A DNA stretch of 63,339 nt from Actinomycetota bacterium (GTDB taxonomy: Bacteria; Actinomycetota; Geothermincolia; Fen-727; Anoxymicrobiaceae): positions 1 through 63,339 of the forward strand of contig JAGUWJ010000010.1 of the NCBI GenBank assembly GCA_020062425.1, read 5' to 3'. Below are positions 2,566-27,688 of the stretch, one piece after another (the first letter of the stretch is position 1; every line of letters begins with the position of its first letter). Made by a program: the position numbers and the translations under genes. The notes beneath the pieces are model-generated. The model saw nothing but the letters and a program-made list of their open reading frames with translations. It made no database searches and was not told the DNA's origin.

Positions 2566-2856
2566 TCAGCCGCCGGCGATAGGTGGGAAGATGGCCACCG
2601 TATCTCCGTCATGGACTGTGCAATCCAAACCCCCGGGCAATGCACGGTAGTGGTGTCCGTTGAGCAGAATAGGGTTCTCCGGGCGGATCGCTCCCGTCTC
2701 AGGATCAAACACTCTGTTTTGGAAAGCCTCTCCAAGACGCTCTGCTGTCTGGCTGAGAACTTCCCGTATGGTCGCCCCGGGCAGTTCGAGCTCTACCTCA
2801 CCAGTACCGCCCATCGCGGTCTTGATCTGCAGATAGCCTTTTACCCTTATCGCCAA
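2566..2856 (-). CDS. MoaD/ThiS-family ubiquitin-like small protein (C-terminal GG)
   Basis: 96 aa ending ...VAIFPPIAGG. Size and the LLNG...DGD.V.IFPP.AGG pattern are typical of MoaD/ThiS sulfur carriers. Last gene of the operon. Confidence 0.7.
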   Translation of the reverse strand: MAIRVKGYLQIKTAMGGTGEVELELPGATIREVLSQTAERLGEAFQNRVFDPETGAIRPENPILLNGHHYRALPGGLDCTVHDGDTVAIFPPIAGG

Positions 2857-2862
2857 AGGAGA

Positions 2863-3672
2863 TCACCCGTCCGCCTGTCTCCCGGCCTTCTCGGCGGATG
2901 ATTCTGCCATCGTGGCATCCCGAAACCCCAACCTGCCCAGGATTTCGCCGACAGCGAGCAGACTCGGCGCATCGTCAGGGAGCTCCCATATAGACCTGCC
3001 GGTCCGGTCGAACTCGATCACCTTTCTGTCCATCGGAATCATTCCCGCCAATTCCAGGCCCAGCTCTTTCGACTTTTCCAGCAACTCCTCAACCCCATTC
3101 TCCACCCGGTTGAGGATGAGTCGTATCCGGAAGGAACCTTCCACACCGTAATCCGTTGCGATTTTCTTCAGGTGTGCCGCGGTCTGCAGTCCCTTTACGG
3201 TAGGGTCCGAGACAATGAGCAGTGTATTGATGCTGCCCAGTACCCTCCTGTTAATCTGCTCGATCCCGGCTTCGCAATCAACTAAAGTCAGTTCATATCG
3301 CTCGGCGAGTGATTCAATCCCGTGCTTCAAGAGCTCGTTTATGCCGCAGTAACACCCGGGACCCTCGGCCCGGCCGATTGCGAAGAAGGAGTAGTCAGGC
3401 TGTTCAACCAGTGCTTCCTCTATGAGGACGTCACGCATGTGCCGCTCGCCGATCTTTCTCCTCTCCTCGGGATTTTCAATAAGCCTCTTCCGGTAATCCC
3501 CGATTGTGGCTACCGACCCCATGCCAAGGGCAATAGCCAGGCTCACCGGGGGATCGGCGTCAATGATGAGCGGGCGGTATCCCTGGGCGATCAATAACTT
3601 CGCGGCTATGGCCGTGAAGGTGGTCTTGCCGGCGCCTCCCTTTCCCGTAACCGCGATAGTCTCCGGCGGCAT
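2863..3672 (-). CDS. CooC-type MinD/ParA-family ATPase (metallocentre maturation factor-like)
   Basis: Deviant Walker A IAVTGKGGAGKTT, IIDADP, and a CxC motif (GPGCYCG) as in CooC. Start moved to ATG 3672 (MPPETIAVTGKGG), which follows GGAAAGGGGA; the ORF-track start is 3699. Confidence 0.75.
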   Translation of the reverse strand: MPPETIAVTGKGGAGKTTFTAIAAKLLIAQGYRPLIIDADPPVSLAIALGMGSVATIGDYRKRLIENPEERRKIGERHMRDVLIEEALVEQPDYSFFAIGRAEGPGCYCGINELLKHGIESLAERYELTLVDCEAGIEQINRRVLGSINTLLIVSDPTVKGLQTAAHLKKIATDYGVEGSFRIRLILNRVENGVEELLEKSKELGLELAGMIPMDRKVIEFDRTGRSIWELPDDAPSLLAVGEILGRLGFRDATMAESSAEKAGRQADG

Positions 3673-3703
3673 GGCATTAATCCCCTTTCCGGCAGTCATT
3701 CAC

Positions 3704-4516
3704 TCACTCACCGCCGACCGCGCTGGTGCGCAATTGCCTCTTGGCCCTTTCCTCGGCGAAGAGCGCCGCGCCGAGCGCACCGATGATCTGCGGGTCGACA
3801 TTCGGTAACTCGAGCTGCTCCAGACCTAGTATTTCCTTTAACTGGGAGACGACGGCGACATTCTTGGCGACCCCGCCGGTCATGGCCACTTCGGGCTTGA
3901 TCCCTACACGCTTGGCCAGTTTGCTGATTCGTTCGGCCATGGCCGAACATACTCCGGAAGCGATGCGCTGTGGGGTTTCTCCGTCGTATAGCAGGCATAG
4001 CACGTCGTACATAGCAAGAACGCTGCAGGTCTTTGTGATACCGACGGTATCCTCAGCCGACAGGGCCAGGGGTCCCAGCTGTTCCAATTCCACACCGAGA
4101 GATTTGGCCATCAACTCCAGGAATCTCCCCGTCCCCGCGGCGCACTTGTCGTTCATGACGAAGTCGACCATGTATCCCAGCTTGTCCACGCGGATGACCT
4201 TGCAGTCCTGGCCGCCTATGTCGATTATGGTCCTCACGTTCGGATTGGCCCAGTGTGCTCCCCTGCCGTGGCAGGATATCTCAGAGATGCTGCTCTGGGC
4301 GAACTCGATGCGCTCGCGGCCGTAGCCTGTGCTCACGCAGTAATCCAGGTCTTCGAACTCCAATCCCGCCTTGGCGAGCGCCTGGGCGGTGACCTCCCGC
4401 GCGGTATCCTCCGGCCGCGGTCGCACGCGGATTATCTCGTACCCAATAATCTTGTCGTCTTCGAGAAGAACAGCTTCGCCGCTCAGGGAGCCTACGTCGC
4501 AACCGGTAAATATCAC
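3704..4516 (-). CDS. BcrA/BcrD/BadF/BadG/HgdC-family ATPase (electron-activating subunit)
   Basis: Motifs GCDVGS, DIGGQD, NDKCAAGTGRFLE, TGGVAKN. Start set to GTG 4516, preceded by AGGAGAGAAAT. The longer ORF-track form (to 5044) overlaps the upstream gene and its N-terminus is Arg/Gly junk. Confidence 0.85.
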   Translation of the reverse strand: MIFTGCDVGSLSGEAVLLEDDKIIGYEIIRVRPRPEDTAREVTAQALAKAGLEFEDLDYCVSTGYGRERIEFAQSSISEISCHGRGAHWANPNVRTIIDIGGQDCKVIRVDKLGYMVDFVMNDKCAAGTGRFLELMAKSLGVELEQLGPLALSAEDTVGITKTCSVLAMYDVLCLLYDGETPQRIASGVCSAMAERISKLAKRVGIKPEVAMTGGVAKNVAVVSQLKEILGLEQLELPNVDPQIIGALGAALFAEERAKRQLRTSAVGGE

Positions 4517-4527
4517 ATTTCTCTCCT

Positions 4528-5319
4528 CTATTCCAGGGACTTTTCTCTCGCAAGCAATGCTGCGCCGACTGCGGTCAATTCCTGCGGGTCGAATCTGATC
4601 TCTTCCACCTTCACGCCGACGATCTCCTCCAGCGCCTTGACCACGCTGCTGTTCTTGACCACACCCCCGGTCACCAGCAGGTCGGGTTCGAATCCCACCC
4701 GGTTCAGCATGGTCGCCGCGCCGGAAGCTATGGCGTAGGCGATACCGGAAGATATGCTCGAGACGGCCTCCCCTTCGTTCAGGTGGGATACGATCTCGCT
4801 CTCTCCGAAGACCGCGCATTGCGCGCTGATGCGGGCTCTTTCGGGGGCTGCCTGGGCCAGGGGGCAGAGCTCCTCCACGCCCAGCTCCAGGGCCTGTGCA
4901 GCCTGCTCTATGAAAAAACCGGTACCCGCGGCACAGCGGTCGTTGGTACGGTACTCGAGGACCCGGCCGTCTTCGTTCAAGACGACCACCGTGGTACTCA
5001 GTCCTCCTAGGTCGATGACGGTGCGGACCCCGGGATGGGCCCAATTCACCCCACGCGCCAGGGCGCTTATAGCGCTGGTGGAAAGGTGGGGGAATGGAAT
5101 GTACCTCTCTCCCCAGCCGGTTCCCCCGACATTTCCGATCTCCTCAATGGTCACCTTCGCCATCTCCAGCGCTCTGCTGGTGGAATCCTCGATTGCCTGG
5201 ACCAATCGCCCCTCGTTCCTGGTGATATCGAACCCGATTACCGTGCCATCCATGAGGACTACGGTTTTCGTGGACATTGCGCCCGCGTCGCATCCCAGAG
5301 ATGCCTGCATGTTCTTCAT
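4528..5319 (-). CDS. BcrA/BcrD/BadF/BadG/HgdC-family ATPase, second distinct paralog
   Basis: Motifs GCDAGA, DLGG, NDRCAAGTGFFIE, TGGVVKN; GGAGG ribosome-binding site upstream of ATG 5319. Confidence 0.85.
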   Translation of the reverse strand: MKNMQASLGCDAGAMSTKTVVLMDGTVIGFDITRNEGRLVQAIEDSTSRALEMAKVTIEEIGNVGGTGWGERYIPFPHLSTSAISALARGVNWAHPGVRTVIDLGGLSTTVVVLNEDGRVLEYRTNDRCAAGTGFFIEQAAQALELGVEELCPLAQAAPERARISAQCAVFGESEIVSHLNEGEAVSSISSGIAYAIASGAATMLNRVGFEPDLLVTGGVVKNSSVVKALEEIVGVKVEEIRFDPQELTAVGAALLAREKSLE

Positions 5320-5363
5320 ATTCCGCAGTTTCCTCCGTTTATTCCTGCTGCAACACCGGCAGG

Positions 5364-6815
5364 TCAGGAAAATGTTGTCTCGACAAACTCGCCTACAATG
5401 CGCCGCAGCTCTGCCGGCGGAGTGAAGCGCTTGTCGAACATGTCCAGCTCGAACCTGAGACAGGGAACTCCAGTCTTCTCTTTGATCTTATCGCTCATGA
5501 GCTTGTTGAGCGCCCAGTAATGCTTGCAGGCCATGTTTCCCCCGAGTATCAGCGCGTCGGCCTTGTGGCCTTTTACCACAGTCTCGAAGTCGTTGATCCA
5601 AATGTCCGAGAAGGTCATGCTCTGCCTTCCCATGGGCATGTTGATAACGCGCCAGGCCAGGCCTTCGATCATGGACTCCACGCTGCTCGTGTCGACCAAC
5701 CCGATATCGGGGTCGAAGTACGTCAGGGTATCCGCCATGTACGTGACCCCATGCTCCTCCTCCAACCAGTCGAAGAAGGGCAGATCGTAAGCTTCCCAGG
5801 TATAGCCCCAGGCGAACCGCTTCTCCTTCTTGTCTTCAGGTATGACGCCCTCGCCTTTGTCCGCCTTGGCCTTGACCACTTCGTAGACCTCTTTGAAATA
5901 GGCCGCTGCCATCGGTGACCCGATCCCGGTGAGGAAGATGGTGTCCGCCGGCCGGTGCCAGCCGGTATCCGGGCAGGGCACGTTTTTCTTCAGCTCCTGG
6001 GTCTTTATGAAGTAGTCGACGGCCTGGTTTCCATAATCGACGTGCTCCCTCAGCTTATCCTCGTCGAGGGTGTTGCCGGTCATCTTCTCAATTGCCTCGA
6101 TCATCCTCTTCGTCTCGTCCACCAGGAACTTGAGGCTCCGCTCGTCACGATAATACGGTGTCTCTATGGGGACCAGCGGAATCCCCAACTTGCGGGCCGT
6201 CCACTCGTACAGCTTATTACTGGGATCGCACGGGGTGGTGACCTTGAACAGCATATCCGGATTGGGGACCACTCCCATGAGGAGGAATCCGGCAGTGCCC
6301 TTCTGTGTCGAGCACAGGTGGTCGGGGTAGCCCTCGGCCTCGATGCGGTCTATTCCTTCCTCGCACCCGTTATTGTACAGAGCCGCGGTAAGACCGCATA
6401 TGAGCTCGTAGCAAATGGGCATTATGCCCATTGCGAAACACAACTCCACGCTGACGGCGAAGTAGTTGTAGCAGAGCGGCTTCCCCGAGTCCAGACCCTC
6501 GAGCACGTAGTCGGCGTAGTCCTTCATGTGCCTGCAGAACGCCGCGGCGGTGGGCCTGTTCTTCTCCTTGATGATGGTATCCACCAGAGCCGGCTGGACC
6601 ATGTCGAAATTCGCGAGCAGCCCCTCGGGGAGGATATCATACATTACCTCCCGGCCGCCCCACTCCTCGAGGTCATAAAGGCTCTCCTGGTCCAGCACGA
6701 AGTTGGCCAGCTCCATGGTGGTCTTCCAGTTCTCGAATATGGTGCGGTCCTTGTGGTTACCTTCCGTTTCGCTCACCTCGCCCGGGCTTGAACCTTTCGA
6801 AACTCTTTCATTCAT
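5364..6815 (-). CDS. BcrB/HgdB-type 2-hydroxyacyl-CoA dehydratase/benzoyl-CoA reductase D-family subunit, tandem copy 2
   Basis: Collinear with the 6827-8230 product over its whole length. The start is uncertain: the codon equivalent to the copy-1 ATG reads ACG here, so upstream ATG 6815 (MNERVSKG...) is used. Confidence 0.75.
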   Translation of the reverse strand: MNERVSKGSSPGEVSETEGNHKDRTIFENWKTTMELANFVLDQESLYDLEEWGGREVMYDILPEGLLANFDMVQPALVDTIIKEKNRPTAAAFCRHMKDYADYVLEGLDSGKPLCYNYFAVSVELCFAMGIMPICYELICGLTAALYNNGCEEGIDRIEAEGYPDHLCSTQKGTAGFLLMGVVPNPDMLFKVTTPCDPSNKLYEWTARKLGIPLVPIETPYYRDERSLKFLVDETKRMIEAIEKMTGNTLDEDKLREHVDYGNQAVDYFIKTQELKKNVPCPDTGWHRPADTIFLTGIGSPMAAAYFKEVYEVVKAKADKGEGVIPEDKKEKRFAWGYTWEAYDLPFFDWLEEEHGVTYMADTLTYFDPDIGLVDTSSVESMIEGLAWRVINMPMGRQSMTFSDIWINDFETVVKGHKADALILGGNMACKHYWALNKLMSDKIKEKTGVPCLRFELDMFDKRFTPPAELRRIVGEFVETTFS

Positions 6816-6826
6816 CTCGTGCAAAC

Positions 6827-8230
6827 TCAGGGAAATGTGGTCTCGACAAACTCCCCCACTATGCGGCGCAGCTCGGCCGGTGGAGTAAAGCGCTTGTCGA
6901 ACATGTCCATCTCGAACCTGAGACAGGGGATTCCCGTCTGCTCTTTTATCTTGTCGCTCATGAGTTTGTTGAGCGCCCAGAAGTGTTTGCAGGCCATGTG
7001 GCCCCCGAGTATCAGCGCGTCGGCCTTGTGGCCTTTTACCACCGTCTCGAAGTCGCTGATCCACATGTCGGAGAAGCCCATTGTCTGCCTGCCCATGGGC
7101 ATGTTCATCACCCGCCAGGCCAGGCCCTCGATCATGGTCTCGACGCTGCTCGTGTCGATCATTCCGACATCCGGGTCGAAGTAGGTCAGGGTGTCCGCCA
7201 TGTACGTGACCCCGTGCTCCTCCTCCAGCCAGTCGAAGAAAGGCAGGTCGTAACACTCCCAGGTGTATCCCCAGGCGAATCGCTTCTCCTTCTTTCCTTC
7301 GGGGATCACCCCTTCGCCCTTGTCCGCTTTGGCTTTCACAGCTTCGTAGAGATTTTTGAAATAGGCCGCCGACATGGGCGTTCCGATGCCGGTGAGGAAG
7401 ATGGTGTCCGCCGGCCGGTGCCAGCCGGTGTCCGGGCAGGGCATGATCTTCTTCAGTTCCTGGGTCTTGATGAAGTACTCAACGGTCTCGTTTCCATAGC
7501 CGACGTGCTCCCTCAGCTTATCCTCATCGAGGGTGTTGCCGGTCAGCTTCTCCATCGCCTCGATCATCCTCTTGATGTCATCCATGAGGTACTTGATGCT
7601 GCGCTCGTCTCGATAATACGGTGATTCGATAGGGATCAGTGGAATATTCAGCTCGTGAGCCGTCCACTCGTACAGTTTGTTGCTGGCATCGCAAGGCGTG
7701 GTGGGCTTTAGAAGCAGGTCCGGCTTGGGGACAACTCCCATGAGCAGGAAGCCAGCGGTACCTTTCTGCGTAGAGCAAAGGTGGTCCGGATATCCCTCGG
7801 CCTCGATGCGGTCGATACCCTCCTCGCAGCCGTTGTTGTACAGAGCCGCCGTCAAACCGCATATGAGCTCGTAGCAGATGGGCATTATGCCCATGGCGAA
7901 ACAGAGTTCAACGCTGATGGCGAAGTAGTTGTAGGCGAGCGGAATCCCCGACTCGAGTCCTTCGAGCATGAAGTTGGTGTAATCAAGCATGTTCTTACAG
8001 AACGCCTCGGCACTGGGCCTGTTCTTCTCCTTGATGATGGTATCCACCAGAGCCGGCTGGATCATATCGAAATTCTCGAGCATCCCCTCTGGAAGGATGT
8101 CGTAGATCACTTCCCGGCCCCCCCAGTCCTCGAGGTTGTAAAGGCCTTCCTGGTCCAGGACGAACAGGGCCAGCTCCATTGTGGTCTTCCAGTTCTCGAA
8201 TATGGTGCGGTCCTTGTGGTTGTTTCCCAT
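6827..8230 (-). CDS. BcrB/HgdB-type D-family subunit, tandem copy 1
   Basis: Conserved Cys-containing blocks (ELICGLTAALYNNGCEEG, HLCSTQKG, TTPCD). ATG 8230 lies 8 nt after AAGGAGG; the ORF-track GTG 8239 sits inside that ribosome-binding site. Confidence 0.85.
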   Translation of the reverse strand: MGNNHKDRTIFENWKTTMELALFVLDQEGLYNLEDWGGREVIYDILPEGMLENFDMIQPALVDTIIKEKNRPSAEAFCKNMLDYTNFMLEGLESGIPLAYNYFAISVELCFAMGIMPICYELICGLTAALYNNGCEEGIDRIEAEGYPDHLCSTQKGTAGFLLMGVVPKPDLLLKPTTPCDASNKLYEWTAHELNIPLIPIESPYYRDERSIKYLMDDIKRMIEAMEKLTGNTLDEDKLREHVGYGNETVEYFIKTQELKKIMPCPDTGWHRPADTIFLTGIGTPMSAAYFKNLYEAVKAKADKGEGVIPEGKKEKRFAWGYTWECYDLPFFDWLEEEHGVTYMADTLTYFDPDVGMIDTSSVETMIEGLAWRVMNMPMGRQTMGFSDMWISDFETVVKGHKADALILGGHMACKHFWALNKLMSDKIKEQTGIPCLRFEMDMFDKRFTPPAELRRIVGEFVETTFP

Positions 8231-8235
8231 CTTGC

Positions 8236-9360
8236 TCACCTCCTTGCTATCCTCTCCATGAATGCCTCTATCCTTGTCCTGAACCTCCCGATGTCGGAGA
8301 GCATGTACTCCCTTTCCAGGGTGAGGACGGGAATGCCCATTTCCTCCAAGTCCTCTGTGAGCATCACGTTATCGGCCCCGTGGGTGTCGCAGAAGACGAT
8401 CTTCTGCAGGATGATCCCGTCCACATCCGCCCCCCGGGCCATCTCTTCGTTGAACTTGAGCCTGTTGTCGTATTCCCCGAGCATGCGTGGGCAGGGGTTG
8501 TGGTAGTAGTAACGCTTGGCTAGGGCCTGTATGGGATTGCCGTTCTCCTCGACCAGATTGAGGAAATGCCTCGAGCCGTAGCAGAGCGAATCAGTGACAA
8601 CCACTCCGCCGAGGTCCTCGATTATCTCCAGCAGATGGGGGTCATCCATGGCTGAGCCGCCCACCATGAGTCGGGCGCTGTATTCGACGTGCTCGCCGCT
8701 GCTCTCGATCTCTCCCAAAGCCTCCGCAAGCAGCTCGTTGTACCTGTCCCGGGGCATGTGGAAGGCGGACAGTACGATGCGCATGGCATCCGCCCCGCTC
8801 AAGGGCACGTCTTCAGCCTTTCTCATATCGTATAGCTTCTCGACCAGGCGCCTGCTCTCGTTGTAGACCTTGATCGCCTCTCGAACGCTATCGTCAGAGA
8901 TCCTCTTGCCGAAATTCGTGCGCAGCTGCTCCCGGAAATTGAGGATCTCCTCCTCGTACCACTTGAAGCCTCCTTCGTAGATGGAGTGGGGTACCGTTAT
9001 CATGTAGAGGTAATCCGTATTGATGTGCTTGTCCCAGATCTCGTACATCCTGCGAATCTGCTCGCATCCGTTCAGGAAGCAGAATCCGTCCAGGAAATCG
9101 TATTCCCCGGAAAGGCCAGCCTGCAGGATGCAGCGCGCGTAAGTGCAGTTGAACCTGTGCATATATACGTCAGCCAGGTTCGTCTCCGTACAGCCCCGGC
9201 ACTCCACACGGTAAGGCAGCAGCCCGCTCGCCCATATCAGTTCCTCGGGGACATATCCGCATGCCGAGCCGACTATCCGGCGCCCCGAGTCCTTCCACTC
9301 CTTGACATAGGGGTTGTCCCTTCTGTCAGGAAGCGCCAGAAGTTCCTGTAACGCACTCAT
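8236..9360 (-). CDS. BcrC/HgdA-type D-family subunit
   Basis: MSALQELL...GSACGYVPEELIWASGLLPYR...CTYARC...NGCEQIRRMYE... is typical of the HgdA/BcrC family. ATG 9360 follows GGAGGAGG. Confidence 0.8.
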   Translation of the reverse strand: MSALQELLALPDRRDNPYVKEWKDSGRRIVGSACGYVPEELIWASGLLPYRVECRGCTETNLADVYMHRFNCTYARCILQAGLSGEYDFLDGFCFLNGCEQIRRMYEIWDKHINTDYLYMITVPHSIYEGGFKWYEEEILNFREQLRTNFGKRISDDSVREAIKVYNESRRLVEKLYDMRKAEDVPLSGADAMRIVLSAFHMPRDRYNELLAEALGEIESSGEHVEYSARLMVGGSAMDDPHLLEIIEDLGGVVVTDSLCYGSRHFLNLVEENGNPIQALAKRYYYHNPCPRMLGEYDNRLKFNEEMARGADVDGIILQKIVFCDTHGADNVMLTEDLEEMGIPVLTLEREYMLSDIGRFRTRIEAFMERIARR

Positions 9361-9435
9361 GTAACACCTCCTCCGTACAATGCGGAAAGCGAACCCGCGC
9401 TCTCCACTCACCGGTCATTCGCTATGCAAATGCAG

Positions 9436-11112
9436 TCATGCTTCTTCTGATTGGGCCACCTCCTCATCTCTCAGGACCTTCTTGAAGACCTTCTCGGTAA
9501 CCGTCAACGGGAGAGCGTCCCTGAATTCCAACGTCCTGGGTACTGCATAGGGGGGAAGCTTCTCCCTGCAATGAGCGATGATCTCGTCCTCTCCCACCTC
9601 GCCCTTGTACTCGTTCGACAGGACAACGAAGGCCTTTATCCGTTCGCTGCCCGGCCGTTCAGGATCGGGAATCCCGATTGCAGCGGCCACCGAGACGGCG
9701 GGGTGCTCGAATAGGACATCGTCCACCACAGTGGAATAGACTTTGTTGCCGGATACGTTGATCATGTCCTTGGTCCGGTCCACCAGGAAGAAGTAGCCGT
9801 CCTCGTCCATCCGGCAGAGGTCCCCCGTGGGCAACCAACCGTCCTCGAGACCATCCCCCGCTGTAGGCCAGTACCCCTTCATGACCTGCGGACCGCGCAC
9901 GTAGAGCTCTCCGACCTCACCCTGGGGAACCTCTTTGCCTGTTCCCGGATCCACCACCTTCGATTCCGTGTCCACGACGGGCAGCCCTATGGAGCCCGTC
10001 TTCTCGAAGGGCATGAACCCGGTTATCTTCGCGAAGCTGGAGAGGTTGAAGTGAGTGAGAGGGCCGGTCTCCGTCAGCCCGTAAGCCTCTGTTATGGGCA
10101 TCCCGGTGACTTTGCGGAAGCGTTTTCCGACTTCGGGGGGAAGAGGGGCCGCGCCCGAAGTGAAGGTGGTGTTGGTCCGGGTCAACTTCTCCTCGGTCAA
10201 CCTCATGTACTGGGTAGGCACCAGCGTGGCAAGGAACGGCCTGCTTTTGAGCGCCTCCGCGATGGCAGCGTTGTCCCTGGGATCGGGGATCATTATCATC
10301 TGCAGGCCCCAGTTCACGGCCGACCGCATTCCGAGGTGGCCGTAGGCGTGAAACACGGGTACACCGATGAGTATGGAAGCCTTGCCCTTGACACCCTTCT
10401 CGAGGGGACCCAGTACCCATGGGAGCAGCTGCATAGTGTTTGCGACCATATTGAAGTGTGTCAGCATCACGCCCTTTGGCCTGCCGGTCGCTCCCCCCGT
10501 GAACACCAGCAGGGCCAGGTCCTCCCTGGGATCGATCTCGACGTCCGGCGGCTCCGGTTCATGGGCCGCCAGCAAGTCCTGGAACTGGAGAGTCCCCTCT
10601 TCGTCGTCGGCCACTGCCGGCTCGGCGGCGTATTCCCGCGGGTGTGTGAGGATCACAGACTCGAGCGCTGTCTCGGCCTTGACGCTTTTCACCAGGTCGC
10701 AAGAGCGATTAAGGCAGATGATGGCCCTCGCGCCCGACTCCCCCAACTCCCATATCAGGTCACGCTCACGGTGCAGGGGGCTGCAGGGCACATGGGCGCT
10801 GCCGGTCTTCTGTATCGCATATTCACTGATGACGAACTGGGGGCAGGTGGGAAGGATTGTCGCAACCTTGTCACCCTTGCCGATGCCCAGGTCGGCGAGC
10901 GCCGACGCCAGCCTGTCCACCTGTTCGTGCAGTTCACGCCATGTAATGTGGTTTCCCAGGTAGAGGCAGGCTGGCCGGTTGGGATAAGCGGCGGCCGTAT
11001 CGTCGAGCAGCTTGAAGGCCGGCACCTCGGGATAGGGCTCGAAGGTCTGGGCCAGGGCGAAATTCGCCAGCTTGTACCCGGACTTCCATGGCCTTGTATC
11101 GTAAACGCCCAT
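9436..11112 (-). CDS. AMP-forming acyl-CoA synthetase/ligase
   Basis: AMP-binding motifs (LVFTGGATGRPKGV, YGLTE, TGDL, NVSGNKV). ATG 11112 shares one base with the TGA stop of the upstream AOR gene (TGATG coupling). Confidence 0.85.
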   Translation of the reverse strand: MGVYDTRPWKSGYKLANFALAQTFEPYPEVPAFKLLDDTAAAYPNRPACLYLGNHITWRELHEQVDRLASALADLGIGKGDKVATILPTCPQFVISEYAIQKTGSAHVPCSPLHRERDLIWELGESGARAIICLNRSCDLVKSVKAETALESVILTHPREYAAEPAVADDEEGTLQFQDLLAAHEPEPPDVEIDPREDLALLVFTGGATGRPKGVMLTHFNMVANTMQLLPWVLGPLEKGVKGKASILIGVPVFHAYGHLGMRSAVNWGLQMIMIPDPRDNAAIAEALKSRPFLATLVPTQYMRLTEEKLTRTNTTFTSGAAPLPPEVGKRFRKVTGMPITEAYGLTETGPLTHFNLSSFAKITGFMPFEKTGSIGLPVVDTESKVVDPGTGKEVPQGEVGELYVRGPQVMKGYWPTAGDGLEDGWLPTGDLCRMDEDGYFFLVDRTKDMINVSGNKVYSTVVDDVLFEHPAVSVAAAIGIPDPERPGSERIKAFVVLSNEYKGEVGEDEIIAHCREKLPPYAVPRTLEFRDALPLTVTEKVFKKVLRDEEVAQSEEA

Positions 11113-12974
11113 CAGGTGGCACCGATCCTTTCCACGACGTAGTCCAGGCCCAACTCCTTCAACTTCTCCGCTGTCGGCTTCCCCGTCGCCTTGTCCCAAC
11201 CCCGGAACTCGTAATAGGCATCGAGCAGGGGCTCCAGGTCGACCACCAGGCCTTCGGCCGGTCCTTCCGGCAGCGGCTCCTCCAGGAGCCGCTTCGGCAG
11301 CGTGTCGTCGGCGCGCGAAGCGCCTTCCCGAACGTTGAAAGCTCTCGCGAGGTTATATATCCGCTCGCCCGCCGTCCTGAACTCGGCCACGTCCATGTCC
11401 CAGCCCGTCGCCGAAGCGATCATGGGGACTACCTCCTCGGCCATCAGAGCCATCCCCATGAACTTGCAGGCGCCAAGGGCGTCGAACGTGGTCAGCGCAT
11501 CCTCCATGTCCTTGACAACCTTGGCCTCCGCCGGGTTTTCCACCGTCACATCTTCAATGGTGCTTTCCTCCACGATAAGGAAGGGAATGTCCAGGAACGT
11601 GGGCCCCTGCACGTAGGCGGTGACGTGGTCGCCTCCACGGTTCGCCGTGGCGAACCCAAGCCCGGTTATCTTGGTCGCCCTGCAGTCGTAGCAGGCCAGC
11701 TCCAGGCCTTTGACGTGCATGGCGAATCTCTCGCTGCCCTGCCCCAGTTTCTCCGACACCCGCTTGGTGCCCTCCGCCAACAGGTCGCCGAGGCCTTCAC
11801 GATTTGCAATACGGTGCACCATGTCCACCATGCCGGCGGCATCGCCGAAATGCAGCTCGATCCCGCCCGCCTGTTCCGCCGTCAGGAGTCCTTTCTCGAA
11901 GCACTCCATCGCGAACGCTATGGTGCTACCCGTCGAAATGGTATCCAGGCCGTAGTCGTTGCAGATTATGGAAGCGTGCGTTATGGGCTCGAGATCGTTG
12001 ACGTCGCACATCGGGCCGAAGACCCCGACGCTCTCGTACTCCGGTCCTTCTCCCTTTGCCTTGTACGGGCCGGACTCGATTTGAGTCTCCCGTCCACACG
12101 CGATCGGACAGGCAAAGCAGGCTCTTCGCCCGGTCAGGATACTCTCGTTGATGGCCGGCCCGTTGATGTCATCAGTATAAGAGCAGACGCCCGTCTGCCA
12201 GTTCCTGGTCGGCAGGCCGCCCTTCACGTTGACCATGTCGATCACCATGACAGTGCCGTAGACCTCAAGCGTCATCTTAAGGAGGCTTTCGTTGACCAGG
12301 TCTGACGCGGCCCTCGTGGCTTCCTTGAAGGCTTCCTTGTCCGCAATCTCGATCTTCTGAGAGCCGGAGGCGGCTATGGCCTTGAGGTTCTTCGACCCCA
12401 TGACTGCCCCGAGCCCGCATCTGCCGAGTGCCCTGTGCTCATCGTTCATGATGGCGGCGTACCTTACCAGGTTCTCGCCGGCGATGCCTATGCATGACAC
12501 GTTGAACTTCTTCCCCAGGTCCTCCTTGAGCGCCGATGTCGTCTCGAAGACATTCTTGCCCCAGAGGCTTGCCGCGTCCTGAAGCCGTGCCGTGCCGTCG
12601 TCGATGACCAGGACGACCGGAGCGTCCGCCTTGCCCTCGAGGATGATGCCGTCGTATCCGGCCTGCTTCAGATCGCGGCCCCATTTGCCTCCTGAATTGG
12701 CCTCCCCCCAAAAACCGGTAAGGGGAGACTTTGCAACCGCGGAAAACCTGCCGGAACTGGGTGACGTGGTCCCCGTCAAAGGTCCGGTCATATATATCAA
12801 CTTGTTCTCCGGGCCCAGTGGATCGATGCCGGGGGGGACCTCCTCGATGAGGTACTTGGTCGCCAGGCCGCTCCCGCCGAGGAGCATGCGTGCGTCTTCT
12901 TCGGGGAGTGGCTCTTCCGATATGGTCCCGCTGGAGAGATTGACTCTCAGCACTTTTCCCATGAATCCGTACAT
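11112..12974 (-). CDS. aor: Tungsten-type aldehyde:ferredoxin oxidoreductase family protein
   Basis: N-terminus MYGFMGKVLRVNLSSG; motifs GPEYESVG, CFACPIACGRE, DTISTG, DALGACKF; 620 aa. Confidence 0.9.
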   Translation of the reverse strand: MYGFMGKVLRVNLSSGTISEEPLPEEDARMLLGGSGLATKYLIEEVPPGIDPLGPENKLIYMTGPLTGTTSPSSGRFSAVAKSPLTGFWGEANSGGKWGRDLKQAGYDGIILEGKADAPVVLVIDDGTARLQDAASLWGKNVFETTSALKEDLGKKFNVSCIGIAGENLVRYAAIMNDEHRALGRCGLGAVMGSKNLKAIAASGSQKIEIADKEAFKEATRAASDLVNESLLKMTLEVYGTVMVIDMVNVKGGLPTRNWQTGVCSYTDDINGPAINESILTGRRACFACPIACGRETQIESGPYKAKGEGPEYESVGVFGPMCDVNDLEPITHASIICNDYGLDTISTGSTIAFAMECFEKGLLTAEQAGGIELHFGDAAGMVDMVHRIANREGLGDLLAEGTKRVSEKLGQGSERFAMHVKGLELACYDCRATKITGLGFATANRGGDHVTAYVQGPTFLDIPFLIVEESTIEDVTVENPAEAKVVKDMEDALTTFDALGACKFMGMALMAEEVVPMIASATGWDMDVAEFRTAGERIYNLARAFNVREGASRADDTLPKRLLEEPLPEGPAEGLVVDLEPLLDAYYEFRGWDKATGKPTAEKLKELGLDYVVERIGAT

Positions 12975-13096
12975 CTCAGTTCCTTTCCCTTAAGAGCTCC
13001 ACGCTTTCGCCAGCTCCGCATGACCTGCCGTCACGTGCGGCCAGCAGGGTTTGAGACGGTCGAGGCCGGAGACGCCTCGCATATGGATTTCAGGGA

Positions 13097-13528
13097 CTAT
13101 TCGCCGAGGTAGCTGGCTTCAAAGGAACTGATGGAGTCCGCCACCGCCCTGATGAACTTGGCATTGCGCATAACCTTGCTCATGTCACCCTTGAGTGTGA
13201 AGATGCCCTTGACCACGCCTTCGATGAAGTCTTTCTCTCCCTTTACCACTTCCTTGAAGGCACCGTAGTCACCCGTGCACAAGAACCCCGCCTCGACCTC
13301 GGAAGGGTCTTTGAGCTCGCGCGAATCCTTGCACTTCCCGGTGCCGGGTTCGGGCTCCAGGTAAACATAGTGTGTTTCCTCCAGGCCCGACCCGGGCAAG
13401 ACCTCGAATACCCAGCTCCCGTTCCAGCCGACTCCCCACTTCGTGCCCGTTTCCGCGACTCGTTCGCTGCCGTTGATTGCTACTTTCCAGGCGTCACACC
13501 ATTCCTGAGATGGATATAGAACTGCCAT
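13097..13528 (-). CDS. SCP2 sterol-carrier-like domain protein
   Basis: 143 aa; the C-terminal part, FTLKGDMSKVMRNAKFIRAV, matches the SCP2 fold signature. Confidence 0.65.
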   Translation of the reverse strand: MAVLYPSQEWCDAWKVAINGSERVAETGTKWGVGWNGSWVFEVLPGSGLEETHYVYLEPEPGTGKCKDSRELKDPSEVEAGFLCTGDYGAFKEVVKGEKDFIEGVVKGIFTLKGDMSKVMRNAKFIRAVADSISSFEASYLGE

Positions 13529-13558
13529 TTCCCAGACCTCCTTTTCCCTGTCTTCTGC

Positions 13559-14818
13559 CTAAATGGTTTCAGTCTCGTACCAGTACCTGGCGTTCTCCAG
13601 TATCTTGAGGGCCTTTCCGCCCATCCACAGACCGATTACTTTCTGGTCCCTCCAGTGCTTCTCGATATCGCCTTCCCTCGAGTACCCGTAGGAGCCCATG
13701 AAGTCCATAGCCCGGGAACAGGCCCACTCAACTGCGGTTGTGGCGTGGACGGCCAGCCCCCTCGTCTTCAGGCAGAATTCGTCGCTCCAGGGATCCATGC
13801 CGTAGATCTCCGGGTGGTCGTGCTCTCGGATATAGGCCCAGGTCCACGCCGAGGTGGACTCGATAGCAATGGCGACATCGGAGAGCATGTCCGCGCAGAT
13901 GCTGTGCTCCTTGAGTTTCTTTCCGGCGATGACCCTCTCGTTCGTCCACTTCTTGATGATCTCGTAGACGTTCTTCATGACTCCGATGCACATGGCGGCG
14001 GAGCCTATGTTTCCCGTGCTGATGCAATGCCGCCAGTATTCCACGTCGTCCCCGGGGCCATGTGCCCTGTACCGCTTCGGCACACGCACATGGTCGAACC
14101 AGATGTCGGTGTTCATGTCCGCCGACATCCCGGCTTTCAGGTACGGCTTGCCTACCGAGACGCCTTCTGCATCGGCCGGGACGAAGATGTATGCGATGTC
14201 TTTAAGATCAGTAGAACCTGGATTCGTACTGCATACGACTCCGAAGAGATCGGCTATCTCACCTGAGTTAGTGGGCCAGATTTTGTGACCGTTTACTATC
14301 CATTCGTCCCCGTCGAGGGTAGCGCTGGTCGCGATCGTTCTGCCCTTCATTACTCCGACGTTCTCCACGTCGGCGCCGCTTGCCGGCTCCGTCATGGCAT
14401 GGCACCCCACATAGAGGTCATCGCCACAGAACTTCTCACCAAACTCTATACAGAGCTCCATGTTCCTATGCGGCTCTGCGAGGATCGGGATCAACGGCCA
14501 GACCGAACAGGCTACCGCCACGGAGAAGCCGGAGTCGATCCTGGCCAGCTCTTCGATCACAATGGCGATCATAGCCATCAACTCCGGCATATCCGTTCCG
14601 CCGGCCTCGGCGGGAAAGAAGGCAGGATTTATCCCCAGGTCTACCAGCACTTCCTTCATAAGCGGCTTGACAAGTTCGTGTTTTTGCCAGTCACCGTCGA
14701 TCTCGCGCCGGATAGGCATCAGCTTGTCTTCGGCCCACTCCCGGATGACCTTGCCAATGTCGTTCACGAAATCCGAACACCACTCCTTCGGCCGAATAAA
14801 ATCATCTATTGTCGGCAT
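13559..14818 (-). CDS. Acyl-CoA dehydrogenase family protein
   Basis: ACAD pattern (MTEPASGADV, W.TN, C-terminal helical domain). ATG 14818 follows GGAAGGAGG. Confidence 0.85.
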   Translation of the reverse strand: MPTIDDFIRPKEWCSDFVNDIGKVIREWAEDKLMPIRREIDGDWQKHELVKPLMKEVLVDLGINPAFFPAEAGGTDMPELMAMIAIVIEELARIDSGFSVAVACSVWPLIPILAEPHRNMELCIEFGEKFCGDDLYVGCHAMTEPASGADVENVGVMKGRTIATSATLDGDEWIVNGHKIWPTNSGEIADLFGVVCSTNPGSTDLKDIAYIFVPADAEGVSVGKPYLKAGMSADMNTDIWFDHVRVPKRYRAHGPGDDVEYWRHCISTGNIGSAAMCIGVMKNVYEIIKKWTNERVIAGKKLKEHSICADMLSDVAIAIESTSAWTWAYIREHDHPEIYGMDPWSDEFCLKTRGLAVHATTAVEWACSRAMDFMGSYGYSREGDIEKHWRDQKVIGLWMGGKALKILENARYWYETETI

Positions 14819-14990: not shown

Positions 14991-15005
14991 GCAAAAAGCG
15001 TGCCA
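14991..15005 (-). promoter_or_regulatory. Sigma-54 (-24/-12) promoter for the ACAD-to-MoaD operon
   Basis: The minus strand reads TGGCACGCTTTTTGC, which is TGGCAC-N5-TTGC with exact spacing. It lies about 170 nt upstream of ATG 14818 and faces the operon. Confidence 0.65.
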
Positions 15006-15114
15006 AAAACGCTTTTCCTGAAGTCGAAATTTGAAAATAACCGAAAAAAGTAAGTCACCATGCGCATATCGACTGGTAGTTCTCGTCCGACAGGTCTTCT
15101 GTTTCCAGCGGGTG

Positions 15115-15145
15115 TTGTACCTATGTGGAACAGAGTGTCGTACAA
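15115..15145. promoter_or_regulatory. Candidate enhancer (UAS) inverted repeat TTGTAC-N19-GTACAA
   Basis: Inverted repeat located 110-140 bp upstream of the -24 element, inside an AT-richer divergent intergenic region of roughly 500 bp. Confidence 0.3.
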
Positions 15146-15324
15146 TAAAGGCGAGGAATTGGGACAGGCTGTCGCAGAATGCGTTTGAGCATTTACATCC
15201 GGCCGAGTTCCTGATATTACTAAACGGCCGGAGTTCTAAAGAAGCGAAGACCTCGAGGATACGGACACCGCAGACAGCTGGCTTCACCCACTGGCAGGGA
15301 GAAGAAGGGGGACAGACTGTCACT

Positions 15325-24266: not shown

Positions 24267-24716
24267 CTACAGCCCGAGCTCTTGGAGGAGCTGCGAGGGC
24301 GAACAGACGAGCATGCCCGACTTCTTTTTTAATGCCGCGTTTTTCAGGAAATGGTTGTCACCGGTCACGAAGAAGTCGGAGCCCCCGGCCAGGGCAGCGG
24401 CGAATATGCACGCATCGCCCTCGTTCAATGTGTCAGTCCAACGGCGATATTCCCCCGGGTTGGGGTCGCTTACAATCGAGATGGGAGAGTTCAGAAAGAA
24501 CTTGCTCAGAGCCGGCAGCGCCTGCGGGAGCTTCCTGTCGAACGTGCGGACGACTTCTTCCAATGTCTGCCGTGAGACAACCACCTTGATCCCGCCTTGC
24601 AGCATGAGCTCGAGGATGCGGCCCGGGGCGCCATCCGGGGAGTAGAGGCCAGAGAAGATGACGTTGCTGTCGAGAAAGACGAGAGGCGGCTTATTGTCTC
24701 TCGCTGCCGCGCTCAC
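24267..24716 (-). CDS. PIN-domain toxin (VapC-like)
   Basis: VFLDSNV acidic motif and FFVTGDNHFL C-terminal motif. The 5' end overlaps the antitoxin gene by 26 nt. Confidence 0.75.
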   Translation of the reverse strand: MSAAARDNKPPLVFLDSNVIFSGLYSPDGAPGRILELMLQGGIKVVVSRQTLEEVVRTFDRKLPQALPALSKFFLNSPISIVSDPNPGEYRRWTDTLNEGDACIFAAALAGGSDFFVTGDNHFLKNAALKKKSGMLVCSPSQLLQELGL

Positions 24717-24972
24717 GTGTTATCTCCCGCCTGGCCCTGCGGGCTTCCTTGAGCAGGTCCTGTTCGGATACACCGTAGCGCCCGAACGCCTCACGGATCT
24801 CTTCAACGGCGTCGAGCGCTTTGCTCTTTCTGGGGGTGGCTTTCAGAACGGAGCCCTCGACCACCAGCTCCAGGGTGTCCCCCGGAGCGATACCCAGCTC
24901 CTCGCAGACTTCCCTGGGGATGGTCACCTGGCGCTTGGGGCGTACGACAACATCCGTTCCCCGTGATGACAT
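24691..24972 (-). CDS. AbrB/MazE/SpoVT-family antitoxin
   Basis: MSSRGTDVVVRPKRQVTIPREVCEELGIAPGD (looped-hinge-helix motif). ATG 24972 follows AGGAGG. Confidence 0.75.
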   Translation of the reverse strand: MSSRGTDVVVRPKRQVTIPREVCEELGIAPGDTLELVVEGSVLKATPRKSKALDAVEEIREAFGRYGVSEQDLLKEARRARREITRERGSERQ

Positions 24973-25114
24973 TTCAATCCTCCTGCGTAGGACGTCCGAC
25001 ATCCTACATCTGATTCTACCCGATCCTCGCATGACAGGCAACAGCCTGAACCGGCCTGGAAATAGGAAAGGCACCACCGTCGTGCGGCAGTGCCCTGTCA
25101 ACTCGCAGTCCCGG

Positions 25115-26350: not shown

Positions 26351-26401
26351 ATGTTCTGAACTACCTTCCCCAATCCGCGGGCGCGCCCGCGGTCACTGTC
26401 T

Positions 26402-27649: not shown

Positions 27650-27688
27650 CTCCTTTCTGCCACCACAGCAAGAGACCGTCAGCCGCTC

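Follow-up and report, generated by a model that had tools for sequence, protein, structure and literature searches.

The 63-kb stretch of DNA analyzed here (63,339 nt, hereafter the window) carries an operon of 11 genes on the minus strand (2566-14818), in which HGD-D subunits and two BcrAD/HgdC-type ATPases are encoded beside a tungsten-type AOR, a CoA ligase, an ACAD family flavoprotein and an SCP2-like protein. The question raised by this locus is which reaction such a set of genes serves. We consider it fairly probable that the operon encodes a route in which a CoA ester is formed from a hydrophobic aldehyde or acid and then reduced in an ATP-driven step. The reductase itself is most likely related to benzoyl-CoA reductase, and it would form a separate, unstudied branch of the class-I aryl/acyl-CoA reductases.

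Operon layout and the sigma-54 control region

The preliminary description counted 12 genes, one more than the operon holds, although every gene that it named was found on the minus strand. From the ACAD gene to the ThiS/MoaD-like gene, the junctions measure 30, 122, -1, 75, 5, 11, 44, 11, 4 and 6 nt. The tight packing described earlier was thus borne out at the AOR/ligase junction (TGATG, a 1-nt overlap), but not for all junctions as 1-12 nt, given that four of them span 30-122 nt. Terminator-like sites showed no excess over chance (10 observed versus 9.7 expected). Based on the one conserved sigma-54 promoter, the tight spacing and this lack of excess, the genes appear to form a single transcription unit.

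A perfect sigma-54 -24/-12 promoter (TGGCACGCTTTTTGC; 14991-15005, minus strand) precedes the ACAD start by 172 nt, and it is the sole exact TGGCAC-N5-TTGC match in the window. The element was kept in three species (those of the window, L006 and L001), whereas the remaining spacer had diverged. Two GACAGnCTGTC palindromes (no strand assigned), which are candidate activator sites (UAS), were found approximately 160 nt (GACAGGCTGTC; 15163-15173) and 310 nt (GACAGACTGTC; 15311-15321) upstream of the promoter. The window contains no others, against an expectation of 0.16, and L006 has two copies at matching positions.

The second palindrome directly precedes the ATG of a divergent rpoN-like sigma-54 gene (15325-16704, plus strand; the ORF opens at 15031, and 15325 is the likely ATG). 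Its product contains Sigma54_CBD, Sigma54_DBD and the RpoN box ARRTVNKYR, its activator-interacting region is degenerate (E 0.027), and the same arrangement was observed in L006. This gene precedes a sigma-54-dependent activator gene (16750-18780, plus strand; PAS, AAA+ with GAFTGA, and a Fis-type HTH, HTH_8), which is likewise divergent and upstream of the operon. Activator orthologues adjoin the operon in L001 (67%), L006 (85%) and L024 (56%), and weaker ones were found elsewhere. We infer that the activator binds the GACAGnCTGTC palindromes. Sigma-54 control, as proposed earlier, is supported by the conserved -24/-12 element, the divergent activator and the two palindromes upstream of the promoter.

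Subunits of the proposed reductase core

The small HGD-D subunit (374 aa; 8236-9360, minus strand) is BzdN-like: among solved relatives, BzdN scored highest (8s02_B, 203 bits), followed by HadC (140), DCCP (123) and MbdN (107). The double-cubane cysteines were assigned according to PMC11971306, the source of the BzdNO structures (8S02, 8S1T and 8S2R). With these assignments, C34, C72, C99, C260, C290 and C324 align with C36, C73, C100, C263, C293 and C327 of BzdN, and all six were invariant in 48 of 48 small-subunit homologues. HadC (beta), which binds [4Fe-5S], has four of the six, the first and fourth being missing. Judged by its sequence, the small subunit is predicted to bind an [8Fe-9S] double cubane for storing electrons and passing them on. 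Given that it has all six BzdN cysteines and that HadC is without two, a reductase is favored over a dehydratase; dehydratases have lost their [8Fe-9S] clusters (PMC11971306). The class-I layout that had been read from the two ATPase genes is strengthened by this independent evidence from the small subunit. The motif is informative in one direction: its presence favors a reductase, and its absence is no counter-argument, since MbdN has only three of the six cysteines.

The large HGD-D subunit is encoded by two tandem paralogues on the minus strand, copy 1 (467 aa; 6827-8230, or to 8239 with a GTG start) and copy 2 (5364-6815). C152, C180 and C414 were unchanged in each of 55 homologues and correspond to the three cysteines that bind the cluster in HadB, DCCP and MbdO; C119, E121, H150, H411 and H416 were also mostly conserved. 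The protein is predicted to be the catalytic subunit with a [4Fe-4S] site. In a Foldseek comparison with the AF2 model of copy 1 (pLDDT 89.6), TM-scores of 0.74 to BzdO, 0.71 to MbdO and 0.70-0.71 to HadB were obtained at identities of 18-20%, with BzdO at approximately 18%. HadB gave the best Foldseek E-value as well as the best sequence match among solved structures (35.5 bits), and a sequence search that allowed E values up to 10 did not return BzdO. Since the fold is as close to HadB as to BzdO, the active-site chemistry is not fixed by homology. Compared with BzdO, the large subunit carries an extra N-terminal segment of approximately 70 residues and, as additional conserved residues around the cluster, C119, H150, H411 and H416. 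The position of BzdO His131 (second cluster cysteine +3) appears to be Ser183 in an indirect alignment, an observation that runs counter to a reductase.

Both ATPases (minus strand) match Pfam BcrAD_BadFG. ATPase a (263 aa; 4528-5319) is the more divergent partner (MbdQ, 153 bits; HadI, 138 bits), and for ATPase b (270 aa, GTG start; 3704-4516) the scores were 202 bits for HadI, 198 for MbdQ and 187 for HgdC. The cluster cysteines of each were invariant (C129 and C168 in a; C125 and C164 in b). The two are 37.5% identical, and the a-then-b order was found in 24 loci, which upholds the earlier proposal that two distinct ATPases reflect the class-I reductase layout.

Taken together, the core has the BzdNOPQ architecture: a six-cysteine small subunit, a three-cysteine large subunit with the conserved Glu E121, and two unlike BcrAD ATPases, both bridging-cluster cysteines being present in each. 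The Azoarcus/Aromatoleum-type class I enzyme has this four-part design, in which one small and one large D subunit are combined with two different BcrAD ATPases, and it also has the [4Fe-4S] cysteines with a nearby conserved Glu. An ATP-dependent four-subunit design is likewise shared with MbdONPQ, the 3-methylbenzoyl-CoA reductase of Thauera chlorobenzoica (9G87, 9GAI). However, none of the curated NCBIfam cut-offs for benzoyl-CoA reductase, dehydratase or double-cubane protein was reached by any subunit.

Partner genes and distribution of the family

The family was found at 52 loci in species-representative genomes, all of uncultured organisms; the hosts are strict anaerobes and Asgard archaea. 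The full ACAD-to-CooC gene order was kept in approximately 20 species-level genomes, so the cluster is more than a chance association.

The AOR (620 aa; 11112-12974, minus strand) matches AFOR_N and AFOR_C at full length and shows a CxxCxxxC motif (CFACPIAC). It scored 531 bits to the P. furiosus AOR 1aor and to 9mqx and only 217 bits to BamB, and it falls in the AOR clade proper, of the tungsten type. The AOR-ligase-reductase order holds in approximately 19-20 species, and a ferredoxin-domain gene is inserted beside the AOR in 15 loci. These two observations fit an AOR that would supply the acid and also serve as a source of electrons. The operon of the window itself contains no ferredoxin gene, a point against the proposed route. 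The AMP-forming acyl-CoA ligase (558 aa; 9436-11112, minus strand; AMP-binding and AMP-binding_C domains) came nearest to NCBIfam models of fatty-acid CoA ligases (long- and medium-chain), none of whose cut-offs it reached, and no benzoate-CoA ligase model was among the best 25 of its 107 matches.

The ACAD family flavoprotein (419 aa; 13559-14818, minus strand) contains all three Pfam ACAD domains. Its best NCBIfam models were acryloyl-CoA reductase, Desulfococcus-type glutaryl-CoA dehydrogenase and cyclohexane-1-carbonyl-CoA dehydrogenase, with top scores of 103-111 bits versus cut-offs of 470-650. In approximately 19 loci, the same place is taken by an orthologue (68-84% identity); our guess is that the protein processes the reduced ester. 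Enoyl-CoA hydratase, ligase or ACAD genes also adjoin more distantly related forms of the core (L058, L060 and L062). CoA-ester chemistry is indicated both by the ligase and ACAD within the operon and by these neighbors.

The small SCP2-like protein (143 aa; 13097-13528, minus strand) is a remote match to Pfam SCP2 (15.4 bits, E 0.025, cut-off 21.3). SCP2 was the sole Pfam family matched by all 11 of the 11 orthologues tested (best E 9.7e-6), and the C-terminal 56 residues aligned to true SCP2 neighbors in hhalign with E 1.8e-4. The earlier SCP2 call is thus backed by the orthologues, although it is a distant one and the window protein itself stays below the cut-off. A role in carrying lipids or acyl-CoA is probable. 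One or two SCP2-like genes accompany the core per locus, and in L004 the core lies beside DUF1329/DUF1302 genes and a GMC flavoprotein gene. Because of these neighbors, the SCP2-like genes and the fatty-acid-type ligase, the suggested bulky hydrophobic substrate would fit the data.

The CooC-like P-loop ATPase (278 aa; 2863-3699, minus strand) found its best solved match in CooC1 (3kje; 73 bits, E 3e-19), the nickel-insertion ATPase for CO dehydrogenase, and the next was MinD (33 bits). The deviant Walker A motif GKGGxGKT and the metal-binding CxC (C116, C118), which are common to both proteins, were invariant in 35 of 35 homologues. Unlike CooC1, the present protein is linked to HGD-D subunits, and CO dehydrogenase is not nearby. 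Its gene occurs in 45 of 62 loci, always adjoined by HGD-D genes, including loci without an AOR; the gene goes with the reductase core rather than the AOR. The predicted function of the protein is to load the reductase with a metal or cluster. Its association with the reductase core is a new observation. The CooC-like ATPase is a constant partner in the present family, and no such partner is known from bzd clusters.

The ThiS/MoaD-like protein (96 aa; 2566-2856, minus strand; Pfam ThiS, E 2.3e-8) ends in Gly-Gly. Its gene was found in nine loci, eight of them with an AOR, and thus mostly tracks the AOR. It is probably a maturation factor for the tungsten-pterin cofactor of that enzyme; the aor operon of A. 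aromaticum contains MoaD-like aorD and aorE (PMC6365974).

Competing readings and a proposed route

One alternative is a 2-hydroxyacyl-CoA dehydratase whose substrate would be a hydrophobic 2-hydroxy acid and whose ketyl-radical reaction would be non-redox; the two ATPases would then be a heterodimeric activator required only catalytically. By analogy with the lactate/acrylate and phenyllactate pathways, the ACAD would reduce or oxidize the enoyl-CoA. The HadB matches of the large subunit, the marginally closest match of ATPase b to HadI and the clostridial AcrC, partner of lactyl-CoA dehydratase, as best model of the ACAD all point this way, and HadBC/HadI, the (R)-2-hydroxyisocaproyl-CoA dehydratase (3O3M, 4EHT), belongs to the same superfamily, with its catalytic Glu aligned. 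However, the complete cysteine set of the small subunit argues against it, as do HadB and HadC model scores of 62 and 156 bits versus cut-offs of 750 and 700. The Had system has one activator gene (a homodimer) and needs ATP catalytically only, in contrast to the two conserved ATPase genes here, and the CoA-transferase and 2-hydroxyacid dehydrogenase of its pathway are absent from the operon. We regard a dehydratase as unlikely. A double-cubane-type reductase of small molecules that carry no CoA (acetylene-, azide- or hydrazine-like, or an unactivated alkene), with the ligase, ACAD and AOR as functionally unrelated neighbors, is quite improbable. DCCP/DCCP-R of Carboxydothermus hydrogenoformans (6ENO, 7YYL) does have the same six-cysteine site and an ATP-driven BcrAD-type reductase partner, and the small subunit scored 202 bits on the NCBIfam model, but below its cut-off of 350. 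Some relatives adjoin proteins akin to the putative isoprene reductase IsrA (L059, and the Fer4L protein; PMC10134865). DCCP nevertheless consists of two copies of one protein and uses the double cubane itself to reduce small molecules, whereas the present family always pairs two very different subunits, the large one being without the second sub-cluster cysteines. In addition, several gene arrangements that are independent of one another connect enzymes of CoA-ester metabolism to the core.

It is very improbable that the cluster is a benzaldehyde/benzoate pathway with an ordinary Bzd-type reductase of benzoyl-CoA (or methyl-/hydroxy-benzoyl-CoA). The small subunit has BzdN as its nearest solved relative and is publicly annotated as "bzd-type benzoyl-CoA reductase N subunit", and AORs oxidize aromatic aldehydes (PMC6365974). 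However, its family forms its own clade, with 34% identity to BzdN, and the bzdN (206 bits), bzdO (28-33) and bzdQ (135-219) scores lie below cut-offs of 454, 449 and 380, BzdO being undetected from sequence. The context of BzdNOPQ is the benzoyl-CoA lower pathway, whose dienoyl-CoA hydratase, dehydrogenase and ring hydrolase (dch, had and oah/bamA) were not found among the window proteins scanned, a subset of the ORFs; here it is AOR, a ligase whose nearest models are those of fatty-acid rather than benzoate-CoA ligases, ACAD and an SCP2-like protein. The view that this is not the canonical benzoate set was thus sustained.

Strict anaerobes usually avoid ATP-dependent ring reductases, which counts against the favored reductase as well. 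A precedent is the NaphS2 system, a class-I-type ATP-dependent reductase of a bulky, partly alicyclic aryl-CoA in a strict anaerobe; its four genes lie near old-yellow-enzyme and ferredoxin genes, and the review that describes it mentions no AOR, SCP2 or CooC-like partner. NaphS2 was not recovered in our genome scan for large-subunit relatives, which used two peptide patterns only.

For the proposed ATP-driven reduction of a CoA ester, the following route may be envisaged. In the presence of an inducer, the PAS-domain activator would bind the GACAGnCTGTC sites and the sigma-54 promoter would open. The tungsten AOR would oxidize the aldehyde to the acid, passing two low-potential electrons to ferredoxin, and the ligase would convert the acid to a CoA thioester, a greasy ester that the SCP2-like protein may carry. 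Using ATP hydrolysis, a heterodimeric ATPase would drive ferredoxin electrons to the double cubane, from which two would reach the large-subunit [4Fe-4S] site and reduce the ester at a ring or another conjugated system needing energy input. The ACAD would then handle the reduced ester. Maturation of the catalytic metal site would fall to the CooC-like ATPase, whereas the MoaD-like protein would serve the tungsten cofactor. The two large-subunit paralogues (86% identical, with H411N in copy 2) would probably give two substrate specificities to one shared electron-delivery module. Tandem large-subunit genes were also observed in L014, L027, L039 and L025 and in Jordarchaeia (L036-38, L060).

Gene order and promoter region of the operon

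The region 2566-14818 was analyzed by ORF listing, translation, and Pfam and NCBIfam scans, and the co-directional minus-strand operon of the preliminary description was recovered, although eleven genes were found rather than the twelve it had counted. In order, these encode an acyl-CoA dehydrogenase (ACAD), an SCP2-like protein of 143 amino acid residues, an aldehyde:ferredoxin oxidoreductase (AOR), an AMP-forming ligase, a small HGD-D protein (small D, 374 residues), two large HGD-D proteins (large D copy 1, 467 residues, 6827-8230; copy 2, 483 residues, 5364-6815), two different BcrAD-family ATPases (a and b), a CooC-like P-loop ATPase and a ThiS/MoaD-like protein with a Gly-Gly C-terminus. 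The successive junctions measured 30, 122, -1, 75, 5, 11, 44, 11, 4 and 6 nt, and the AOR and ligase genes overlap by 1 nt (TGATG), as described. Terminator-like sites inside the operon were at chance level (10, against 9.7 expected) and sigma-70-like sites were modestly over chance (8, against 4.6 expected, sd 2.1), so the scan gave no argument against a single transcript, and co-transcription of the operon is likely. An MFS transporter gene (602-1900) was rejected as an operon member given the 665-nt gap and the lipoprotein-like gene on the opposite strand that lie between.

The proposed sigma-54 control was supported by the presence of both a predicted -24 GG/-12 GC promoter and a putative cognate AAA+ activator. 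The promoter, a perfect TGGCAC-N5-TTGC on the minus strand (14991-15005), was the sole exact match in the window. When the upstream regions of the window and its two closest relatives were aligned, the core TGGCACGCTnTTTGC was identical except for one spacer base in the close relative L006, and the rest of the upstream spacer was poorly conserved across the three sequences. The activator, which contains PAS, AAA+ and HTH_8 domains, is encoded divergently, upstream of the operon. With 0.16 occurrences expected in the 63-kb window, the palindrome GACAGnCTGTC was found exactly twice, ∼160 nt upstream of the promoter (15163-15173) and ∼310 nt upstream of it (15311-15321), and L006 carried two copies at matching positions; both palindromes are good candidates for activator binding sites.

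An rpoN-like sigma-54 gene (ORF 15031-16704, likely start 15325) is located divergently on the plus strand, upstream of the operon. It resembles a second copy and adjoins the operon's own activator, and the same arrangement was seen in L006, the closest relative, titled an Actinomycetota MAG. The encoded protein has a degenerate activator-interacting region (PF00309, E 0.027) together with an intact core-binding domain, DNA-binding domain and RpoN box. Actinomycetota are not generally known to have sigma-54. At ∼58.6%, the GC content of the operon falls below the ∼62% of the 24-62 kb region. Horizontal acquisition of the operon, its own sigma factor included, is a possibility.

Subunits of the predicted reductase core

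The gene set of a Bzd-type class I benzoyl-CoA reductase, namely two HGD-D subunits and two different BcrAD ATPases, was identified with Pfam and NCBIfam. ATPases a and b share 37.5% identity and occur in the same order in 24 loci; the pair of cysteines bridging the shared [4Fe-4S] cluster is retained in both. The [8Fe-9S] double cubane of the reductase subunit BzdN is bound by C36, C73, C100, C263, C293 and C327 (PMC11971306). When small D was compared with solved structures by phmmer, six cysteines (C34, C72, C99, C260, C290 and C324) aligned with these ligands, and all six were invariant in 48/48 small-D homologues. In a MAFFT alignment, the six positions read CCCCCC in small D, BzdN and the double-cubane protein DCCP, PCCACC in the dehydratase subunit HadC and QCCFSC in the reductase subunit MbdN. 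BzdN was the nearest solved relative (203 bits), followed by HadC (140), DCCP (123) and MbdN (107).

A dehydratase would be defined by a single activator gene, encoding a homodimeric ATPase, and by a beta subunit in which the six-cysteine set is incomplete; the double cubane is lost in dehydratases, with only a [4Fe-5S] remnant left in HadC (PMC11971306). Two distinct, conserved ATPase genes and a six-cysteine small D were found instead, and the absence of both dehydratase-defining features argues for the class I layout that had been proposed, the core being, as far as its sequences tell, of Bzd-type reductase architecture. It also differs from DCCP, a homodimer of a single HGD-D protein in which the double cubane is the active site, in having two dissimilar subunits that are always paired.

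The catalytic [4Fe-4S]-OH2 cluster of BzdO is bound by C95, C128 and C380 (PMC11971306), and a Bzd-type large subunit was characterized by three such cysteines together with the acid/base pair Glu65 and His131. In large D, the cysteines C152, C180 and C414 were invariant in 55/55 homologues and aligned with the cluster cysteines of HadB, DCCP and MbdO, and the conserved E121 aligned with a conserved Glu of HadB and MbdO. Three residues past the second cysteine, Ser183 was found rather than His, BzdO not being directly alignable by sequence. Large D has Tyr at the first double-cubane cysteine position and is without the second set of double-cubane cysteines. Its matches to solved structures were barely detectable (HadB 35 bits, DCCP 33, MbdO 25), and BzdO gave no match in this sequence search. 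A confident AlphaFold model (pLDDT 89.6) gave TM-scores of 0.74 to BzdO, 0.70-0.71 to HadB and 0.71 to MbdO at 18-20% identity, and large D is, as modelled, a catalytic-type subunit. Fold comparison was rejected as a discriminator between reductase and dehydratase, given that the TM-scores to both kinds of enzyme lie within 0.70-0.74, and the near-equal values do not settle the chemistry of large D.

Copies 1 and 2 of large D are tandem and 86% identical. Residue 411, which adjoins the third cluster cysteine, is His in copy 1 and in 47/55 homologues, Asn in copy 2 and Gly in one large-D copy of locus L014; an active-site difference between the duplicated catalytic subunits is therefore possible. 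Tandem duplication of large D was also observed in L014, L025, L027, L039 and Jordarchaeia.

The gene set had been regarded as non-canonical in the preliminary description, and the curated NCBIfam equivalog cut-offs upheld this view, as did the low identity of the catalytic subunit to BzdO, MbdO and HadB. No subunit passed the cut-off for a Bzd reductase (bzdN TIGR03190, 206 bits against 454; bzdO TIGR03191, 28-33 against 449; bzdQ TIGR03192, 135-219 against 380), for HadC (156 against 700) or HadB (56-62 against 750), or for the double-cubane protein (NF040772, 202 for small D and 54-56 bits, against 350). In the neighbour-joining phylogeny of small D, an analysis that had been proposed as a check, the small-D family formed a separate clade with BzdN as the nearest reference (34% identity). 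The operon core is probably an uncharacterised, widely distributed branch of ATP-dependent Bzd-type acyl/aryl-CoA reductases. In the literature searched, no published description of a cluster combining BCR, SCP2, AOR and CooC was found.

CooC-like ATPase and predicted metal site

The nearest solved match of the CooC-like ATPase was CooC1 (E 3e-19), with MinD next (33 bits), and a deviant Walker A motif GKGGxGK[ST] (GKGGxGKT) and a CxC metal-binding motif were invariant in 35/35 homologues. By tblastn, the gene was detected in 45 of the 62 homologous loci, and HGD-D genes adjoined it wherever it was found, including loci without AOR (L004, L058) and a Chloroflexota locus without a BcrAD ATPase within 8 kb (L062); two homologues chosen by identity level alone were both in HGD-D contexts. 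No CO dehydrogenase was present among the window proteins scanned, nor do the gene tables for related loci list one. Unlike CooC, which is linked to CO dehydrogenase/acetyl-CoA synthase, the CooC-like gene is thus linked to HGD-D genes, and its occurrence next to them even where AOR or BcrAD ATPase is missing points to a member of the reductase core.

The additional conserved large-D residues C119, H150, H411 and H416 adjoin the cluster cysteines in sequence. Large subunits without C119, H411 and H416 (L043-45 and the second gene set of L004 and of L026) had no CooC-like gene of their own, and the BzdNO double cubane assembles in E. coli without a CooC-like helper (PMC11971306). From this match and the helper-free assembly, we infer that the target of the CooC-like protein is the metal site of the catalytic subunit, for which it would be a dedicated maturation factor. 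A further-reaching reading, to which we give a rather low probability, is that the site in the catalytic subunit is not a plain [4Fe-4S] cluster but a more complex one, perhaps heterometallic (Ni-Fe-S), which the CooC-like protein builds. Counting for it are the CooC-like protein with its invariant CxC alongside the D subunits, the extra residues beside the cluster cysteines, the lack of an own CooC-like gene where these residues are missing, and a double cubane that is made unaided. Alternatively, the CooC-like dimer may supply or repair a conventional Fe-S cluster, or it may be an electron-transferring ATPase. If true, the Ni-Fe-S site would give the benzoyl-CoA reductase/dehydratase superfamily a cofactor of a new type; the target of the predicted maturation factor, once found, could reveal a new metal cofactor.

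Two gene associations were rejected as nickel evidence. In L059 (1725-5472), the genes of an 887-aa IsrA-like oxidoreductase (IsrA being a putative isoprene reductase), HypA and HypB lie directly downstream of a large-D gene. HypA and HypB were set aside because they adjoin this GltD-like, IsrA-type flavo-FeS protein; its family is itself associated with HypA and HypB, and the pair brings no independent nickel evidence. The trio matches a putative isoprene-reductase operon type of Acetobacterium wieringae (PMC10134865) and hints at a link of these reductases to the metabolism of unsaturated hydrophobic compounds. The CdhC-like proteins were set aside given that the one translated (L060) is without the A-cluster cysteine motif. 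Such CdhC-domain proteins (245-256 aa) were observed beside the core in L060 (12987-13757), L036, L038 (Jordarchaeia) and L061 (8975-9712, Desulfomonilia), where a second, shorter CooC-like gene follows directly after the CdhC-like gene. The Chloroflexota MAG locus L062 (5531-8780) contains genes for small D, a 426-aa large D, the CooC-like protein, a TRAP transporter and two ACADs; either its BcrAD ATPases are encoded elsewhere or the CooC-like protein is more than a maturation factor.

Conserved neighbourhood, proposed pathway and distribution

The AOR contains full-length AFOR_N and AFOR_C domains (Pfam E 2.4e-83 and 2.7e-139), and a CxxCxxxC motif for a [4Fe-4S] cluster is visible. With scores of 531 bits to the P. 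furiosus AOR (1aor), 375 to FOR and 217 to BamB, it is placed in the AOR clade proper. The ThiS/MoaD-like gene was found in nine loci, with AOR present in eight of them; MoaD-like genes occur in the Aromatoleum aor operon (PMC6365974). The SCP2-like window protein scored 15.4 bits against a gathering score of 21.3 for Pfam PF02036, and 11/11 orthologues matched SCP2 only (best E 9.7e-6), so that the SCP2 assignment is remote and consistent across orthologues. Its single-sequence AlphaFold model (pLDDT 42) was unusable.

Conservation of the gene neighbourhood, which the preliminary description had suggested surveying, was determined by BLAST of the window proteins against all loci, combined with gene-order maps and precomputed gene tables. 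The order ACAD-SCP2-like-AOR-ligase-small D-large D-ATPase-ATPase-CooC-like is kept in ∼20 species. In more distant relatives (38-46% identity), conservation is limited to small D, large D, both ATPases and the CooC-like gene, and other CoA-ester enzymes (enoyl-CoA hydratase, ligase and ACAD) are encoded near the core. Between the SCP2-like gene and AOR, 15 loci encode an extra 436-aa ferredoxin-domain protein and 8 have a true SCP2 gene; the window has only a 122-nt gap there (12975-13096). The 436-aa protein (L002, 3562-4869, and 14 further loci) comprises a winged-helix-like N-terminus, a Cys-rich FICHCCGCCCG stretch and a 2x[4Fe-4S] domain, and it is 24% identical (E 5e-21) to the N-terminal 300 residues of the IsrA-like protein of L059. 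It is present in most operon relatives and is lost in the lineage of the window and its close relatives L001 and L006.

By its gene order, the core is embedded in a conserved, predicted aldehyde-to-acid-to-CoA ester module. The AOR would oxidise an aldehyde to the acid and reduce ferredoxin, and the ligase would convert the acid to its CoA ester. With ATP, the heterodimeric ATPase would drive electrons from ferredoxin into the double cubane; two electrons would move on to the catalytic cluster, where the ester would be reduced. The hydrophobic CoA ester would be acted on or carried by the ACAD and the SCP2-like protein. The potential of the acid/aldehyde couple is roughly as low as that of the donor required by a class I reductase. 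The two electrons from AOR would equal the two used by the reductase, which would explain the linkage of AOR, ligase and reductase. The fatty-acid-like ligase, the SCP2-like genes and the neighbours in L004 (DUF1329/DUF1302 and a GMC-flavoprotein) fit a bulky, hydrophobic substrate.

Among 5.8 billion clustered proteins searched, only 91 large-D relatives were found, all from metagenomes or MAGs, and a profile search of 1.84 billion representatives yielded 373 proteins at E <= 1e-30. Among the 150 representatives listed, ∼6 matched from the first profile positions onward and thus appear to have the N-terminal extension of ∼70 residues. When one genome of each prokaryotic species was scanned, 52 loci were found, all titled MAG or uncultured organism, with hosts in Syntrophaceae, Desulfomonilia, Desulfarculales, Desulfobacterales, Binatia, Chloroflexota, 'Actinomycetota', Jordarchaeia and Freyarchaeota. 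The family reaches Desulfobacterota, Chloroflexota, Jord- and Freyarchaeia, and probably Actinomycetota. The hosts are anaerobic and come from peat, groundwater, digester and sediment.

No reductions known in biology are more demanding than those catalyzed by the ATP-driven reductases of the benzoyl-CoA reductase family, which amount to a biological Birch reduction, and the known substrates are few: benzoyl-CoA, its methyl and halogen derivatives, and tetrahydronaphthoyl-CoA. The present branch is conserved, phylogenetically wide and completely unstudied, and it would combine the full reductase architecture with a strongly divergent catalytic subunit and a CooC-type maturation factor of its own. 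Under automatic annotation, its genes are labelled as benzoyl-CoA reductase or dehydratase, and metagenomic surveys relying uncritically on these names could overestimate aromatic degradation. The substrate, once found, would add a new reaction to anaerobic carbon cycling.

Elsewhere in the window, a separate beta-oxidation-type operon on the minus strand (24267-29299) contains AMP-ligase, ACAD and SCPx-type thiolase genes, and a MazE/PIN toxin-antitoxin pair comes after it. NDP-forming acyl-CoA synthetase-like genes were observed at 21657-23093 and 47198-48781, and a 3-hydroxyacyl-CoA dehydrogenase gene at 43225-44448. As a recurrent domain theme, the right half of the window encodes four large secreted or cell-wall-type DUF5719 proteins (37543-39492, 39516-40694, 49561-53499 and 56135-58471), in which DUF5719 is combined variously with TIG, NlpC/P60, PGA_cap or PcRGLX-like domains.
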